Positions 1 to 5,061 of a stretch of 5,061 bases of DNA are shown here, piece after piece. This stretch comes from a virus. Lineage: Duplodnaviria > Heunggongvirae > Uroviricota > Caudoviricetes. The notes below the pieces were generated by a model. That model searched no databases and was not told the DNA's origin. It saw nothing but the letters and a program-made list of their open reading frames with translations. A program made the translations under genes and the position numbers. The number at the start of each line of letters is the position of its first letter. Position 1 is the stretch's first letter. Location: the IMG/VR virus record IMGVR_UViG_2585427729_000001, positions 1 through 5,061 of that record, one strand, 5' to 3'.

Positions 1-40
1 TGTCAAGTTTCCCCAAAGTTATTCAAAAAGTCAATATTAT
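1..40 (-). promoter_or_regulatory. Late promoter pR' (-35 and -10 hexamers) with the start of the Q-utilisation (qut) region; transcript start lies at or beyond the window edge
   Basis: Read on the minus strand just downstream of the Q stop: TTGACT (plus 29..34), a 17-nt spacer TTTTGAATAACTTTGGG, then GAAACT (plus 6..11). The layout matches my recollection of lambda pR' (TTGACT, 17 nt, TAAATT), with a weaker -10 here. The position immediately 3' of Q is where pR'/qut lies in lambdoid phages. Confidence 0.6.
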
Positions 41-76
41 GCCGTTAATATGTTGCCATCCGTGGCAATCATGGCG

Positions 77-700
77 CTAACGTGTGATCGCATTCAAAAT
101 GTTGTCTGCGATTGACTCTTCCTTGTGGCATTGCACAACCAGAGCGTCATACAGCGGCTTAACAGTGCGTGACCAGGTGGGTTGGGTAAGGTTTGGGATT
201 AGCATCGTCACAGCGCGATATGCGGCGCTTGCTGGCATTCTTGAATAACCGACGCCTTTACATCTTCCGCACTCTTTCTCAGCAACTATCCCCCACTGCT
301 CTGTTTTGGCTATATCAACCGCACGGCCTGTACCGTGGCAATCTCTGCATCTTGCGCCCGGCGTCGCGGCACTACGGCAATAATCCGCATAAGCGAATGT
401 TGCGAGCACTTGCAGTACCTTTGCCTTAGTATTTCCTTCAAGCTTTGCCACGCCACGGTATTTCCCCGATACCTTGTGTGCAAATTGCATCAGATAGTTG
501 ATAGCCTTTTGTTTGTCGTTCTGGCTGAGTTCGTGCTTACCGCAGAATGCAGCCATTCCGAATCCGGCTTGTGATTGCGCCATCCCCATAGCAGCCATCA
601 CATCAGTACCGGAAAGAGAGTCAGAAGCCGTGGCCCGTGGTGAGTCGCTCATCATCGGGCTTTTTGGCGAATGAAATTTAGCTACGCTTTCGAGTCTCAT
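77..700 (-). CDS. Q: Late-gene antitermination protein Q, lambda-type, 207 aa
   Basis: The track ORF 77..733 has an N-terminal extension; the likely true start is the ATG at 700 (MRLESVAKFHSPKSP...), preceded by GAGGGGAAG. The protein matches lambda Q nearly residue for residue as I recall it, including the Cys cluster CRDCHGTG...CGRCKGVG (zinc finger). The stop lies directly upstream of the pR'-like promoter. Confidence 0.93.
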   Translation of the reverse strand: MRLESVAKFHSPKSPMMSDSPRATASDSLSGTDVMAAMGMAQSQAGFGMAAFCGKHELSQNDKQKAINYLMQFAHKVSGKYRGVAKLEGNTKAKVLQVLATFAYADYCRSAATPGARCRDCHGTGRAVDIAKTEQWGIVAEKECGRCKGVGYSRMPASAAYRAVTMLIPNLTQPTWSRTVKPLYDALVVQCHKEESIADNILNAITR

Positions 701-711
701 CGTCTTCCCCT

Positions 712-846
712 CTATCCTTTGCAATGACACCACACTTCAAACATTCGTTTCACAACCTCACGACAGTAGAAGCCGTAAGCATCGCGGGTAAGATCGTAGC
801 GATTGCCATAACGCTGGCGCATATATCGTTCGAATGCTTTGTTCAT
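712..846 (-). CDS. Small hypothetical protein, 44 aa, YlcG-like by position (between rusA and Q); not in the supplied ORF track
   Basis: Hand translation of the minus strand from ATG at 846..844 gives MNKAFERYMRQRYGNRYDLTRDAYGFYCREVVKRMFEVWCHCKG, ending at TAG 714..712. The start overlaps the rusA stop as ATGA, GGAGAA lies a few nt upstream, and the stop is 11 nt before the Q start. Basic, with a C-x12-C-x-C cluster. The position matches the small ylcG ORF between rusA and Q in DLP12-type prophages. Confidence 0.6.
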   Translation of the reverse strand: MNKAFERYMRQRYGNRYDLTRDAYGFYCREVVKRMFEVWCHCKG

Positions 847-1205
847 GTGTTCTCCAGTTCGGTGATTTTTATTCCAAGCCTTCCGCCTGGTACTTTCACA
901 CCACGAATTACGCGAATGTCATCGAATTGCTCGTCGTCTTCCGCAAATCCGGCGTGGATAAGGGAGTCGAGTAAACCTTTCAGGATGTTGTCGAGGTCGC
1001 GGCGGCGGGAGTCTGGAACGTCTGCGATGACTTTGATACGGAGTCGTGATTTGGTGAAAATGTCTAACTTGAGTTGGCGAATGATTTGCTGAACGTCTTT
1101 TCGGTATTTCTGGCCTTTATCGCTGATGTAGTATTGGCCTCCCCGTCTTCGCCAGTAGGTATTCACCGACGGCGGGTATGGAAGCACAAACTGATATTCG
1201 TTCAT
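843..1205 (-). CDS. rusA: RusA-family Holliday junction resolvase (crossover junction endodeoxyribonuclease), 120 aa
   Basis: Protein MNEYQFVLPYPPSVNTYWRRRGG...DVPDSRRRDLDNILKGLLD...GGRLGIKITELENT shares the hallmark RusA motifs with E. coli RusA as recalled (LP-PPS-N-Y-R, PD-RRRDLDN acidic catalytic region, GGRL...ITE) and the same 120-aa length. The start overlaps the ybcO-like stop as ATGA; GGAGGGG lies upstream. Confidence 0.92.
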   Translation of the reverse strand: MNEYQFVLPYPPSVNTYWRRRGGQYYISDKGQKYRKDVQQIIRQLKLDIFTKSRLRIKVIADVPDSRRRDLDNILKGLLDSLIHAGFAEDDEQFDDIRVIRGVKVPGGRLGIKITELENT

Positions 1206-1492
1206 GGCTTAATCTTCCCCTCCTTCAGCAGTATCGCCTGCGTCCTGATCACGCCTTCGAGGTGGTAAAGTCTGGCGTCTTTGTTGTCGAGGTTATGGGT
1301 GCGTCGGTCGATTTCATCGTGACACGCGCTACAAGCCCATGCGCCGATCAGGTCGTCAGGCTTCATTCCCGTTCCGCAAATTCCAGCCATCCGGTAATGT
1401 GCCAGAACTGTAGTTTCAGGGTTGCCATTGCATACGCCGTAAATACGTACCTGGCATTCTCTGCCGCGAGCTTCTTTGCGTAGGTTAGCCAT
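1202..1492 (-). CDS. ybcO: YbcO-like DUF1364-family protein, putative Zn-binding nuclease, 96 aa
   Basis: Protein MANLRKEARGRECQVRIYGVCNGNPETTVLAH...CSACHDEIDRR... has the same length and Cys/His pattern as the DLP12 prophage YbcO that sits immediately upstream of rusA. RBS GGGGAGG lies about 8 nt upstream; TAATG overlap with the preceding gene. Confidence 0.85.
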   Translation of the reverse strand: MANLRKEARGRECQVRIYGVCNGNPETTVLAHYRMAGICGTGMKPDDLIGAWACSACHDEIDRRTHNLDNKDARLYHLEGVIRTQAILLKEGKIKP

Positions 1493-2214
1493 TAAGCAGC
1501 CTCCCCTGTTACTTTCAGCATTCCGTTATCGAGCAGCTTTCTGGTCAGCCACTGTTGACCACACCCGGTGATTTTTGTGGTGAACGATATCTGTATTCCG
1601 TGATTTGTGTTGACCGCTGTTTCTTTCACTGTGAAATAGCCGCGATCCATATATTCCTGCATTGGCACATTGCGCCGGGAACCTGAAGCAATAAGGATTT
1701 TGTGATCGCGCATCCACGCAAACAGTTTGTTTGGACCAATTCCAACAACCTTTGCAAAGTTTCCAATCAAAATTCCGCTGGCCTCGCCAACGCGATCGGC
1801 AAACTCAACTTTAGGTGCGGCAATTGCTAGCTGGTTTTCCAGTTGCATTTTCTGCTCAGCAAGGTCAGCAGCAAGGCGCAACGCTTCTGGTAGCGTTTTT
1901 GGGATATTAACCGCAGCTTCTTCAAGCTCTCGCCAACGGTCAACAAGGCGAGCCGTGAATTCCGGCGACAACTGGGCTACAACGACAATACTGTCTCGCT
2001 TTCCTTGTTCGCCTTCGAATACATACACACAAAAACTTTGATTTAAGCCTAACCCATTGATTCTTCCACAATCCTCAATTTGAGGAAGCCGGATAACACC
2101 ATTTTTAGCCAGCGTTTCGATGGTACGTTTCACATTGTCATGACGCTTACCAACCAACTCAGCGATTTCAATGCTTGTCATTTTTATGGCATTGCCATTT
2201 ATTAACTCATTCAT
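1492..2214 (-). CDS. Phage regulatory protein of the Rha/antirepressor family (N-terminal Rha-like DNA-binding domain plus C-terminal KilA-C/Ant-like domain); Roi-like, 240 aa
   Basis: The N-terminus MNELINGNAIKMTSIEIAELVGKRHDNVKRTIETL is the characteristic Rha-domain signature. The C-terminal half (...FADRVGEASGILIGNFAKVVGIGPNKLFAWMRDHKIL...) resembles antirepressor KilA-C domains. RBS GAGGAAG precedes the ATG; the start overlaps the upstream small ORF by 8 nt. Confidence 0.85.
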   Translation of the reverse strand: MNELINGNAIKMTSIEIAELVGKRHDNVKRTIETLAKNGVIRLPQIEDCGRINGLGLNQSFCVYVFEGEQGKRDSIVVVAQLSPEFTARLVDRWRELEEAAVNIPKTLPEALRLAADLAEQKMQLENQLAIAAPKVEFADRVGEASGILIGNFAKVVGIGPNKLFAWMRDHKILIASGSRRNVPMQEYMDRGYFTVKETAVNTNHGIQISFTTKITGCGQQWLTRKLLDNGMLKVTGEAA

Positions 2215-2383
2215 CGTCTTCTTCCTCGTACATTGAGCTATTCGGATCGCTCATCAGCTCTGCGCAGCAATCGGAGCACACGTGAACTTCCAGCACATGC
2301 AGCTTCTGACCGCAGTTAGCGCACGTTAAAGCTCGCTCGACGCTTTCTTTCTGGTATTGAAGGGTTTGGGATGGGCTAAGCAT
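2207..2383 (-). CDS. ninF: NinF-like small Cys-rich protein, 58 aa; not in the supplied ORF track
   Basis: Hand translation from ATG 2383..2381 gives [58 protein letters not shown], ending at TGA 2209..2207. It has a CxxC...CxxCC putative zinc-binding motif and an acidic tail. GGAGA lies upstream. Size and position (after ninE/ninX, as in the P22 order ninE-ninX-ninF) fit NinF; I also recall lambda NinF as very similar. Confidence 0.7.
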   Translation of the reverse strand: MLSPSQTLQYQKESVERALTCANCGQKLHVLEVHVCSDCCAELMSDPNSSMYEEEDDE

Positions 2384-2733
2384 TATTGGATTCTCCGCAT
2401 CATGAGAAAGACAATCATGGCGGCACGGAGTGGATTGTCATATGCGACACCAACATTCGGTCCGGCATCATCAAACAAGTCCCTTGCGTTGTCTGTGGCG
2501 CACGGCATTGAGGGATTGTCTAAAATTATGCTGATGTTGTTTTCAGTGATAATCGGCCATGCGTCTGCTGGGTTATTGCAGTAGTCGTACCATCGATAAT
2601 TGCCATTTGCTTCATTGCCAACAGACCGTCCATCTGCGTTGTGCGGATAACCTAATGGTTTTGCCCCAACTATCGCTTTAAATACTCGCTTGTTAATTTC
2701 AAAATCACTTAACTGTGAATAATCCATTGTCAT
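2383..2733 (-). CDS. Hypothetical phage protein, about 116 aa, NinX-like by synteny; function unknown
   Basis: ORF in the track as 2383..2769. The probable start is ATG 2733 (ATGA overlap with the ninE stop) or ATG 2727 (better spacing from GAGG). Protein [60 protein letters not shown]... has no motif I can assign to a known enzymatic function. It sits between ninE and the NinF-like gene, where P22-type phages carry ninX. Confidence 0.75.
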
Positions 2734-2906
2734 TTCCTCGCACGATGTCTTAGCCACCGGATATCCCACAGGTGAGCCGTGTAATTGAAGGTTTTTACGT
2801 CAGATTCTTTTGGGATTGGCTTGCGTTTATTTCTGGAGCGTTTCGTTGGAAGGTATTTGCAGTTTTCGCAGATGATGTCGGTGATACTTCGTCGTTGTCG
2901 CCTCAT
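2730..2906 (-). CDS. ninE: NinE, 58 aa, function unknown
   Basis: The track ORF 2730..2996 is over-extended. The true start is likely ATG 2906 ([58 protein letters not shown]), with AGGAGGG 5 nt upstream and an ATGA overlap with the methyltransferase stop. The sequence closely matches lambda NinE as recalled. Confidence 0.85.
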
Positions 2907-3430
2907 GCCGCCCTCCTGACGCCCTGCCCGATCGCCATCAATGCCGCTTTGGATACGGTAGTAAACATCCGTCGAGGACTGATGAACGGTCGCCAAATCA
3001 GCAGCATGGAGCCTTTGCTGTTTCCCTTCTTCTCCAGCCCTGTCGATGGTTCGATAAAATTAATCCGTCCATCAGTGATAATGCGAACTTCGTCGACACT
3101 CTCCAGAGCCTTGCTGAACCATCCGACAGACATATCCTCTGGCACAAGCATCACTACCGTCTGTCGTTGTTGTATGCACTGCTCAGCGGCTTTTTCCACC
3201 CACGGCCTGATATTGCTGTACGGTGGGTTATTCCAGATTGCACCGTGGCTTATCCACTCAGAATTTAGCGCGTCGTCAGCCTCAGTTAGCCAGTGAGCGC
3301 ACAGAGCATTTTTGTCGCTCGCTGCCGAATCCAGCCAGAATCCAAACTCAATATCCAGTGCATCAAAAAGCCAGAGCGGCGTTTGCCAGCAGTCCTTGTC
3401 GTGTGATGGCGTATTTGATTTGATAGTCAT
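2903..3430 (-). CDS. dam: Phage Dam-family DNA N6-adenine methyltransferase, small orphan methyltransferase of about 175 aa
   Basis: Track ORF 2903..3490; the probable start is ATG 3430 ([26 protein letters not shown]...), overlapping the ninB stop as ATGA. It contains the NPPY catalytic motif (IWNNPPYSN) and the N-terminal D-x-W-x-TP signature typical of the phage Dam family. No restriction endonuclease gene is adjacent. Confidence 0.88.
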
Positions 3431-3867
3431 GCAGCCCGATCTCCCCATCGCGCTTTCCATTCGAGAGCCAGTCGCGCTTCGTCTGACCACTTAACGCCAC
3501 GCTCTGTACCGAATGCCTGTATAAGCTCTAATAGCTCCGCAAATTCGCTTACACGCATCCTGCTGGTTGACTGGCCTATTACCACAAAGCCATTCCCGGC
3601 AAGGTTAGGAACAACGTCCTGCTGCTTTAATGCTGCTGTAAAAACGCACTTCCAGCTTTCTGCATCCAGCCAGCGACCATGCCATTCAACCTGACGAGAG
3701 ACGTCACCAAGGCAAGCCCAAAGCTTTCGATTCTGGTCTAAGCTGCGGTTGCGTTCCTGAATGGTTACTACGATTGGTTTGGTTGGGTCTGGAAGAATTT
3801 GCTGTACCGCGTGAATAGCGTTTTGCTGATGTGCTGGAGATCGAATTTCAAAGGTTAGTTTTTTCAT
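3427..3867 (-). CDS. ninB: NinB (lambda Orf), recombination mediator, 146 aa
   Basis: The track ORF 3427..3885 starts at a TTG. The real start is probably ATG 3867 (MKKLTFEIRSPAHQQNAIHAVQQILPDPTKP...), with GGAGAGGGAAG upstream. It matches lambda NinB/Orf as recalled. Confidence 0.9.
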   Translation of the reverse strand: MKKLTFEIRSPAHQQNAIHAVQQILPDPTKPIVVTIQERNRSLDQNRKLWACLGDVSRQVEWHGRWLDAESWKCVFTAALKQQDVVPNLAGNGFVVIGQSTSRMRVSEFAELLELIQAFGTERGVKWSDEARLALEWKARWGDRAA

Positions 3868-3884
3868 GACTTCCCTCTCCCCCA

Positions 3885-3916
3885 AATAAAAAGGCCTGCG
3901 ATTACCAGCAGGCCTG
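3885..3916 (-). terminator. Intrinsic (rho-independent) terminator between ren and ninB, lambda tR2-like
   Basis: The minus-strand RNA would read ...CAGGCCUGC-ugguaauc-GCAGGCCUG followed by UUUUUAUUUGGGGG. The stem is plus 3892..3899 paired with 3908..3915, with an 8-nt loop and a U-tract 3' on the minus-sense transcript. It lies in the only sizeable intergenic gap (3868..3940). On the plus strand no T-tract follows, so it is unidirectional. Confidence 0.75.
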
Positions 3917-3940
3917 TTATTAGCTCAGTGATGTAGATGG

Positions 3941-4231
3941 TCATCTTTTAACTCCATATACCGCCAATACCCGTTTCATCGCGGCACTCTGGCGACACTC
4001 CTTAAAAATCAGGTTCGTGCTCACCTTTCCTTCCCGTTCTTCTCTGGTAGCGAACCGGTAATACACCGTTCGCCAGACCTTACCTTCGATAACCAGAAGA
4101 CCTGCCCGTGCCATTTTAGCCGCGGCCTGATTTATGCTGGTTACTGTTGCGCCTGTTAGCGCGGAAACGTCCTGTGCACAGAAGCTCTTATGCGTTCCGA
4201 GGTAATGAATAATTGCCTCTTTGCCCGTCAT
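3941..4231 (-). CDS. ren: Ren protein, 96 aa
   Basis: Protein MTGKEAIIHYLGTHKSFCAQDVSALTGATVTSINQAAAKMARAGLLVIEGKVWRTVYYRFATREEREGK... matches lambda Ren as recalled in length and sequence. ATGA overlap with the P stop. Confidence 0.9.
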   Translation of the reverse strand: MTGKEAIIHYLGTHKSFCAQDVSALTGATVTSINQAAAKMARAGLLVIEGKVWRTVYYRFATREEREGKVSTNLIFKECRQSAAMKRVLAVYGVKR

Positions 4232-4929
4232 ACACTTGCTCCTTTCAGTCCGAACTTAGCTTTAATTTCTGCGATCTTCGCCAGAGCCTGTGCTCGATTT
4301 AGAGGTCTGCCGCCCATGACAGGAAGTTGTTTTACTGGTTCAGGTATAGTCTCACCACAGTTAATTCGCGCTGTCATACAGGTCAGCTCATCGGCAGCCT
4401 TACGCCGTAATTCCGCGTCAGTCAGCGCATTGGCCCGCATGTTCTGGTACAGGTTGGTAACCAGCCAGTAGTGCGCGTTTGATTTCCACGGATAAGACTC
4501 TGCATCTGGATACAGGCCACGCTTCCGGCAATACTCGTAAACCATATCAACCAGCTCGCTGGCGTTTGGCAGTCCGGCAATAACAGATGCTTCTTCACGA
4601 CACCAGGCAACAAACTGCCCGGGTGATGGCAGGAATGGTCGATTCTGCCGACGGGCTACGCGCATTCCTGCGTTAACCTGTTCCATCGTGGTGATCCCGT
4701 TTTCCCGGAAAGCCAGAACCCACTGGCGGCGGATTTCGTTCAGTTCGTTCTGGTCACGGTTAGCCAGGCTCGCCGGGAAAGTTGCCAGTAACTGGCTGAA
4801 CACACCGTTGATGATCTGCGCTACCTGCTGTACCTGCGGCTTTTCGTCGTACTGTTCCGGCATGTTGTTGGCGATCCGACGCATCTGCTCACGGTCAAAG
4901 TTAACCATCTGTGCGGCGATGTTTTTCAT
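4228..4929 (-). CDS. P: Replication protein P (helicase loader), 233 aa
   Basis: Protein MKNIAAQMVNFDREQMRRIANNMPEQYDEKPQVQQVAQIINGVF... matches lambda P as recalled, full length 233 aa. The start overlaps the O stop as ATGA. Confidence 0.93.
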   Translation of the reverse strand: MKNIAAQMVNFDREQMRRIANNMPEQYDEKPQVQQVAQIINGVFSQLLATFPASLANRDQNELNEIRRQWVLAFRENGITTMEQVNAGMRVARRQNRPFLPSPGQFVAWCREEASVIAGLPNASELVDMVYEYCRKRGLYPDAESYPWKSNAHYWLVTNLYQNMRANALTDAELRRKAADELTCMTARINCGETIPEPVKQLPVMGGRPLNRAQALAKIAEIKAKFGLKGASV

Positions 4930-5061
4930 AAATCCACCCCGTAAATCCAGTCTGTGTTTGTCAAGTCGAGTTTTGGTTTGCTGGCTGTCACGACTGCCTG
5001 TTGCTTGTTACGGTTGATTTCGAGCTGGGTCCACTTGTCGCGGAGTTTGGCCGGGCTCAGC
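4926..5061 (-). CDS. O: Replication initiator O, C-terminal fragment only (5' end lies beyond the window)
   Basis: The minus-strand frame ending at TGA 4928..4926 translates as ...LSPAKLRDKWTQLEINRNKQQAVVTASKPKLDLTNTDWIYGVDL, matching the C-terminus of lambda O as recalled (the P-interacting domain). It runs off the right edge of the window. Confidence 0.85.
   Translation of the reverse strand, partial: LSPAKLRDKWTQLEINRNKQQAVVTASKPKLDLTNTDWIYGVDL

Follow-up and report, generated by a model that had tools for sequence, protein, structure and literature searches.

We analysed a 5,061-nt stretch of viral DNA (positions 1 to 5,061 of IMG/VR record IMGVR_UViG_2585427729_000001; Caudoviricetes), hereafter the window, and in it the small gene ninX, which lies on the minus strand between ninE and ninF of a lambdoid nin region. 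The gene is an ordinary, previously annotated copy of its family and is already known and named. What is new here is the organisation of its product within these surroundings: three blocks that are conserved down to phages of Vibrio alternate with two cassettes that are unalignable between types and that reassort, and this mosaic is flanked by the near-invariant proteins NinE and NinF. As to its role, we lean, if only slightly, towards NinX being dispensable and acting in early lytic growth as a protein-binding factor without enzymatic activity.

Conserved blocks and reassorting cassettes

The ninX product matched the Pfam family PF10765 (Phage_P22_NinX, equivalent to DUF2591) with 60 bits against a gathering cut-off of 22.6 and over profile positions 1-114 of 114, and the function-unknown family PHROG 444 with an E-value of 4e-39, which bears out the label "NinX-like" given to it in an initial annotation. 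The signature blocks of PF10765, taken as the columns more than 90% conserved among 148 cluster representatives, were all found in the protein, namely SDFEIN, CNNPxDAWPII and the C-terminal block. The synteny was also that expected for the family: as in P22, the gene lies in the early right operon with ninE on one side and ninF on the other, and the order ninE-ninX-ninF recurs in HK544, JEP4, Sf101, CUS-3 and Oslo. RefSeq lists an identical protein, WP_021559693.1, a "phage protein NinX family protein" of an E. coli prophage. P22 NinX, of the same family and likewise encoded between ninE and ninF, shares the ATGACAATGG start region and all three conserved blocks with the window protein, but it is only 43% identical to it overall and both of its variable cassettes are of other, unalignable types.

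Conservation across the 148 representatives divides NinX into five parts, listed here with the secondary-structure elements predicted by the structural model described below:

2680-2721, minus strand: conserved N-terminal block, aa 3-16, predicted start of helix 1; 27% GC; most positions 86-98% conserved
2590-2679, minus strand: variable cassette V1, aa 17-46, predicted end of helix 1, loop and beta1-beta2 hairpin; type 'a'; entropy about 4 bits
2527-2589, minus strand: conserved core block, aa 47-67, predicted end of beta2, helix 2 and beta3; defined from the conservation profile; Cys50 invariant
2437-2526, minus strand: variable cassette V2, aa 68-97, predicted beta4, beta5 and loops; type 'A'; entropy about 4 bits
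2398-2436, minus strand: conserved C-terminal block, aa 98-110, predicted helix 3; every position 70-100% conserved; predicted local distance difference test score (pLDDT) about 93

The three blocks are mostly 85-100% conserved. Cys50, Ala103 and Leu108 are present in 100% of the representatives, Arg101 in 99%, and Asn51, Asn52, Asp55 and Asn98 in at least 84%. The column entropy of about 4 bits in V1 and V2 is near random, the exception being a semi-conserved alanine, Ala77, which usually lies within a W-x-A strand motif. V1 ranges from 15 to 58 aa in length, with 102 types seen, and V2 from 29 to 52 residues.

Despite this diversity the cassettes behave as discrete units. Identity to the cassettes of the window is bimodal, at or above 80% or at or below 40% with almost nothing in between, and two V1 types and two V2 types were found in every possible pairing: V1a with V2A in the window, V1a with V2B in CUS-3, V1b with V2A in HK544 and V1b with V2B in 683R2. 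In HK544 and JEP4 other V1 cassettes precede the V2 cassette of the window, which differs there by 1 nt over 44 codons, while CUS-3 carries its V1 cassette, with 5 nt differences in 44 codons, ahead of a different V2; since the partner cassette differs, these three proteins are 67-69% identical to window NinX overall. Shared cassettes in general differ by 0-5 nt in 41-48 codons and so appear to have been exchanged recently. The window-type V1 remains about 86% conserved though it is paired with 25 different V2 types, and the particular combination found in the window is rare (2 of the 108 typed clusters). We conclude that the cassette types reassort by recombination within the conserved blocks.

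The C-terminal tail was seen to reassort independently of V2: the last four codons of ninX (2386-2397) encode (R/Q)RIQ in the window, in 683R2 and in a few others, and QDANNA is the ending of most alleles from E. coli and Salmonella. The window tail reads RRIQ, where that of P22 NinX reads QDANNA.

When the proteins of the same phages were compared, the median amino acid identity was 97% for NinE (nine phages) and 95% for NinF (eight), and only 50% for NinX (range 40-88%). At the DNA level, nine lambdoid alleles agree fully in the ten codons compared of the N-block core and almost fully in the C block, which fits a role for these blocks as homology arms along with ninE and ninF. Outside the lambdoid phages, 11-14 of the 35 block codons are synonymously changed in the alleles of Jerseyvirus, Yersinia and Vibrio phages with the amino acids largely kept, and the blocks must therefore be under purifying selection at the protein level. 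In blastn searches the core block alone matched Vibrio, Pseudoalteromonas and Yersinia phages.

Optional presence of ninX between ninE and ninF

Phage HK140 has no ninX, and in its genome the stop codon of ninE overlaps ninF directly. Aligned with that of the window, this junction has its left breakpoint at the last codon of ninE and its right breakpoint inside ninF, after about 12 codons:

2347-2733, minus strand: mosaic segment of 387 bp comprising ninX and the first ~12 codons of ninF, from pairwise alignment and the HK140 annotation; HK140 has ~43 bp instead

The mosaic joint is thus located inside ninF and not at a gene boundary, because the first ~12 to 13 ninF codons differ. The start of NinF (2347-2383) reads MLSPSQ(S/T)LQYQKES... 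in ninX-carrying phages, as opposed to VIDPNRSYEQQS... in the ninX-less HK140.

Matches to the ninE/ninF flanks were found in 2,229 of 5,426 complete E. coli genomes, and only 111 hold the window ninX allele at a coverage of at least 80%. The contents of the slot were read from 30 rows evenly spaced down the ranking of the E. coli genome matches, and comprised other ninX alleles, an empty junction or an unrelated 133-aa ORF (open reading frame); as a crude estimate from these 30 rows, NinX occupies about one half of the slots, about one third are empty and about one eighth hold the alternative ORF. The description of ninX as a gene inserted between conserved nin genes was thereby supported, and the suggested survey of presence and absence shows a slot that is polymorphic in content. 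The alternative ORF, which was located in a prophage of E. coli 2013C-3513 (locus L005, 1670-2071), has a coiled-coil C-terminus, belongs to PHROG 1511 and has no Pfam family; in the same prophage an IS600-family element also interrupts ninB. The nin genes are non-essential and come from a pool of 30-50 genes (PMC5630979); they are dispensable in the laboratory, and ninX is listed for P22, outside the lambda nin set (PMC8022706).

The ninX ORF ends in a TAA stop codon at 2383-2385 and has two in-frame ATG codons, which account for both lengths, 114 and 116 aa, proposed for the ORF at 2383-2733. The ATG at 2733 gives a 116-aa product (MTMDYS...) and overlaps the ninE stop codon as ATGA, a type of junction that is typical of nin regions (PMC8022706). 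The ATG at 2727 gives the 114-aa product and is preceded by GAGGAA at better spacing; this is the RefSeq/PGAP start in the prophage with the identical NinX protein, and the upstream start was chosen in the ninX annotations of P22 and CUS-3. The two junctions are:

2730-2733, minus strand: ATGA overlap of the ninE stop (TGA) and the upstream candidate ninX ATG (translational coupling), from sequence and alignment
2381-2385, minus strand: TAATG overlap of the ninX stop (TAA) and the ninF start (ATG), from sequence

A promoter search returned three weak sigma-70-like sites, no excess over the 2.6 +/- 1.9 found in shuffled sequences. These three sites (9 of 12 positions each) lie between 2414 and 2696, inside ninX on the coding strand, and probably stem from its AT-rich stretches. 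No terminator was found near ninX, terminator-like sites being no commoner than in shuffles, and a structured-RNA search of the window gave no Rfam match. Because no promoter or terminator signal rises above chance and the stop and start codons overlap, ninX does not appear to be an independent expression unit. By analogy with lambda, its product would be a delayed-early protein of the lytic cycle, translated from the rightward early transcript, and would not be made in the repressed prophage.

Genomic setting, base composition and distribution

All 12 recognisable genes of the window are on the minus strand and together make up a lambdoid nin region, as judged from the ORF list, Pfam and PHROG:

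4228-4929, minus strand: replication protein P
3941-4231, minus strand: ren
3427-3867, minus strand: ninB
2903-3430, minus strand: dam, Dam-type N6-adenine methyltransferase
2730-2906, minus strand: ninE, upstream neighbour of ninX and left homology arm; PF05322, E-value 2e-43
2383-2727 (alternative start 2733), minus strand: ninX, 114 aa plus TAA stop; ORF list, PF10765, PHROG 444
2207-2383, minus strand: ninF, downstream neighbour of ninX and right homology arm; PF05810
1492-2214, minus strand: roi, Roi/Ant-type KilAC protein
1202-1492, minus strand: ybcO, YbcO/DUF1364 protein
843-1205, minus strand: rusA
712-846, minus strand: orf44, 44-aa ORF; PHROG 3871, function-unknown
77-700, minus strand: lambda-type Q antiterminator

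The source is a lambda/HK97-like E. coli phage or prophage. Phages E212 and HK140 are 96% identical to the window across about 90% of its length, and a prophage of E. coli 2015C-4136CT1 is 99.9% identical to it across 841-5061; this prophage encodes an identical NinX, and the 99.9% identity covers the segment P-ren-ninB-dam-ninE-ninX-ninF-roi-ybcO-rusA. It differs in having ninH between rusA and Q, where the window has the 44-aa ORF. A 62-aa ninH occupies this interval in HK140 as well, and blastn identity breaks exactly at 714-840; this interval is the second of the small mosaic replacements of the window.

In the initial annotation ninX had looked AT-richer than its neighbours, which was taken to suggest a different evolutionary origin. 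Its GC content (44.3%, compared with 49.9% for the window) is indeed the lowest of the 12 genes and falls at the 4.6th percentile of all 345-nt segments, about 2 standard deviations under the mean. However, roi (46.1%), ninE (46.3%) and orf44 (45.9%) come within about 2 points of it, and its GC content at third codon positions (GC3, 0.443) equals those of ninB (0.442) and roi (0.436). Recoding of NinX with the codon usage of its neighbours gave an expected GC content of 48.4 +/- 1.6% against an observed 44.7% (P ~0.01), and an expected GC3 of 52.7 +/- 4.5% against an observed 44.7% (P ~0.04). The proposed check of windowed GC content and codon usage thus gave a divided answer, in that a GC deficit was found but the likelihood of synonymous codon choice in ninX (-1.173) cannot be distinguished from those of Q (-1.181), dam (-1.173) and ren (-1.176).

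The low GC is most marked in the conserved N-terminal block, at 27%, and the AT run quoted in the initial annotation was located at 2522-2554, also at 27% GC. Nine lambdoid ninX alleles have GC contents of 40-46% and a Vibrio-phage allele 41%, and low GC is therefore best regarded as a trait of the ninX family. Taken together, the AT-richness of ninX is real but small; it is compatible with a separate origin of the gene, though as evidence for one a deficit of a few GC points with an unremarkable codon-choice score is weak. The refuting outcome, a composition indistinguishable from the neighbours together with a confident housekeeping assignment, was not encountered, and no housekeeping assignment was obtained for NinX.

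The NinX family comprises 1,817 clusters at 50% identity. The best 150 of these 1,817 representatives are, with few exceptions, stand-alone proteins about 100-140 aa long, and a fused domain was seen in none of the 150. By tblastn, NinX was found in 669 phage records (344 of Vibrio, 116 of Salmonella, 85 of Escherichia, 36 of Klebsiella, and others). In a Yersinia phage ninX again follows ninE, in a Jerseyvirus it lies between the genes for a primase-helicase and DNA polymerase I, and in Vibrio siphoviruses it is one of a set of small ORFs that alternate with portal and head-morphogenesis genes of the opposite strand (non-lambdoid homologues were taken at L002, 4001-4285, and L004, 4001-4351). 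Apart from ninE in lambdoid phages, NinX has no constant partner gene.

Presence/absence polymorphism and a lowered GC content are both typical of a 'moron', a gene expressed from the prophage to the benefit of the lysogen, for example through superinfection exclusion. For ninX we consider such a role very improbable, as the gene is coupled to ninE and ninF in an early operon with no promoter or terminator above chance, and its homologues in Jerseyvirus phages, which we take to be virulent, lie beside replication genes. An autonomous moron in particular was rejected, given the lack of any promoter or terminator excess and the translational coupling on both sides.

Predicted fold and protein character

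An AlphaFold2 model built with 55 homologues had a pLDDT of 82 and a predicted template modelling score (pTM) of 0.79. The modelled elements are a helix at 8-20, strands at 36-40 and 43-47, a helix at 53-62, strands at 66-68, 76-78 and 93-95 and a helix at 99-113, and NinX is accordingly predicted to adopt a small two-layer alpha/beta sandwich (helix, two strands, helix, three strands, helix). All three helices, and the strand that follows helix 2, fall in the conserved blocks.

A fold search of the Protein Data Bank (PDB), as the initial annotation had proposed, matched the model only to uncharacterised proteins and allowed no assignment of function. These are 4PUP/4QYB from Burkholderia cenocepacia J2315 and 1R7L, a phage protein from Bacillus cereus ATCC 14579; they are structural-genomics entries without assigned function, share 12-18% identity with NinX, and neither is detected by the NinX sequence profile. 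4QYB, the closest solved fold relative, is described in its deposition as a disulfide-bridged dimer; the codon of Cys50, invariant in 148 of 148 representatives, is at 2578-2580. A search of a viral structure library returned uncharacterised phage proteins only, there was no NCBIfam model, and Pfam searched to an E-value of 10 gave PF10765 only. No match to the defence-system profile models of PADLOC was found at E-values up to 0.1, and NinX was rejected as a defence-system component on that ground. The statement that NinX has no catalytic motif held up, since neither Pfam and NCBIfam nor the fold searches revealed an enzyme family or catalytic motif.

The ~13-kDa product is stand-alone and acidic, as is its family, with a median isoelectric point (pI) of 4.6 and a net charge of -8; 94% of members have a pI below 6 and none above 8. 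This bears on the possibility that NinX binds nucleic acid or the ribosome. The half of the model made of a helix, three strands and a further helix has a partial topological likeness to the folds of double-stranded RNA (dsRNA)-binding domains and of the ribosome hibernation factors HPF/RaiA, on which such a function could be proposed. The uniform acidity of the family, no member of which has a pI above 8, speaks against nucleic-acid binding, and NinX does not show the combination of an alpha-beta-beta-beta-alpha fold with basic RNA-contacting regions that defines the dsRNA-binding domain. We therefore hold a binder of this kind to be improbable.

The conservation of Cys50 raises the alternative that NinX is a small enzyme or ligand binder using this residue with Arg101, Asn98 and Asp55. 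The strong conservation of these residues and of Asn51, Asn52, Ala103 and Leu108 described above is in its favour, as is the model, in which they would lie at the N-termini of helices 2 and 3 or immediately ahead of them. Yet no enzyme family or fold was matched, the protein has no conserved histidine, and the helix-capping patterns S-D-x-E, N-P-x-D and N-P-L-R are explicable by a structural role alone; an active or binding site around Cys50 is thus improbable.

A single-sequence phmmer search of the PDB also gave a match of aa 23-67 to RNase T1 (E-value 0.12), in which the V1 region at 2590-2660 corresponds to the guanine-binding region of that enzyme. The catalytic residues of RNase T1 are His40, Glu58, Arg77 and His92. 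A ribonuclease or toxin related to RNase T1 was rejected and is considered extremely unlikely: the match lies mostly in the non-conserved cassette, is lost with the family profile and is absent from both fold searches, and His40 aligns to a gap.

Possible roles of NinX

A dispensable binding factor, the explanation slightly favoured here, was arrived at because NinX has no enzyme motif, is acidic and matches no other family. The conserved blocks would then form the structural core of the protein, and V1 and V2 would provide a surface that either confers specificity and can be swapped or is simply free to vary. NinX may modulate a host or phage protein, in host takeover, in counter-defence or as an accessory to replication or recombination.

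Several points weigh against this explanation. A binding factor is inferred, by exclusion. The conserved residues S7, D8, E10, N12, C50, N51, N52, D55, N98 and R101 may be a surface site or just helix caps, and a catalytic or ligand-binding site could be formed by two invariant residues, the cysteine just ahead of helix 2 and the arginine in the first turn of helix 3. Confidence in the model is lowest in the cassettes, with a pLDDT of 64-75, and the cassette census is biased, the first 120 sequences having been retrieved by similarity to the window allele. Finally, the DNA identity of the N and C blocks among lambdoid alleles partly reflects their use as recombination arms and not selection on the protein.

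A more specific proposal is that NinX is an anti-defence factor in an arms race, inhibiting or acting as a decoy for host immune or nuclease proteins, with the cassettes as swapped specificity modules. The divergence of NinX between the near-constant NinE and NinF of the same phages would be expected of such a protein, as would cassettes that are discrete, internally conserved and found in all four combinations, with a window-type V1 that keeps its sequence beside so many V2 types. NinX is moreover small, acidic, optional and probably expressed early, its slot also takes alternative cargo, and a Dam methyltransferase is encoded in the same nin region. On the other side, neither the PDB nor the viral structure library held a characterised anti-defence protein or inhibitor resembling NinX, and the literature consulted on the family, its solved fold relatives and anti-defence in nin regions offered annotation tables only, with no functional data and no support for this role. 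Ordinary recombination among lambdoid phages, with loops under relaxed constraint, could also have produced the mosaic, and the shared cassettes, with 0-1 nt differences, were exchanged too recently for a test of positive selection; the ratio of non-synonymous to synonymous substitution rates (dN/dS) carried no information for shared cassettes that were just 0-8 nt apart. An anti-defence role is therefore a possibility that we put forward tentatively and judge to be unlikely on present evidence.

Carried one step further, this proposal would make NinX a modular two-cassette binder, in which an invariant three-helix scaffold presents two beta-hairpin modules and acts against host immunity as an inhibitor, as a decoy or through escape from sensing; exchange of the modules, by homologous recombination in the conserved blocks, would give rise to new specificities. 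We rate this rather unlikely too. If it were true, the ninE|ninF slot of lambdoid, Jersey-like and Vibrio phages would be a hot spot of counter-defence.

In other respects the gene of the window is a routine 'hypothetical protein', named in databases and with an identical copy in RefSeq, and the cassette mosaic between near-invariant neighbours is the sole aspect of it worth pursuing. NinX is nonetheless among the most widespread function-unknown phage proteins, reaching from lambda-like to Vibrio and Jersey-like phages, and its natural cassette variants in near-isogenic nin regions provide an experimental handle, as they can be swapped and tested on panels of defence systems.
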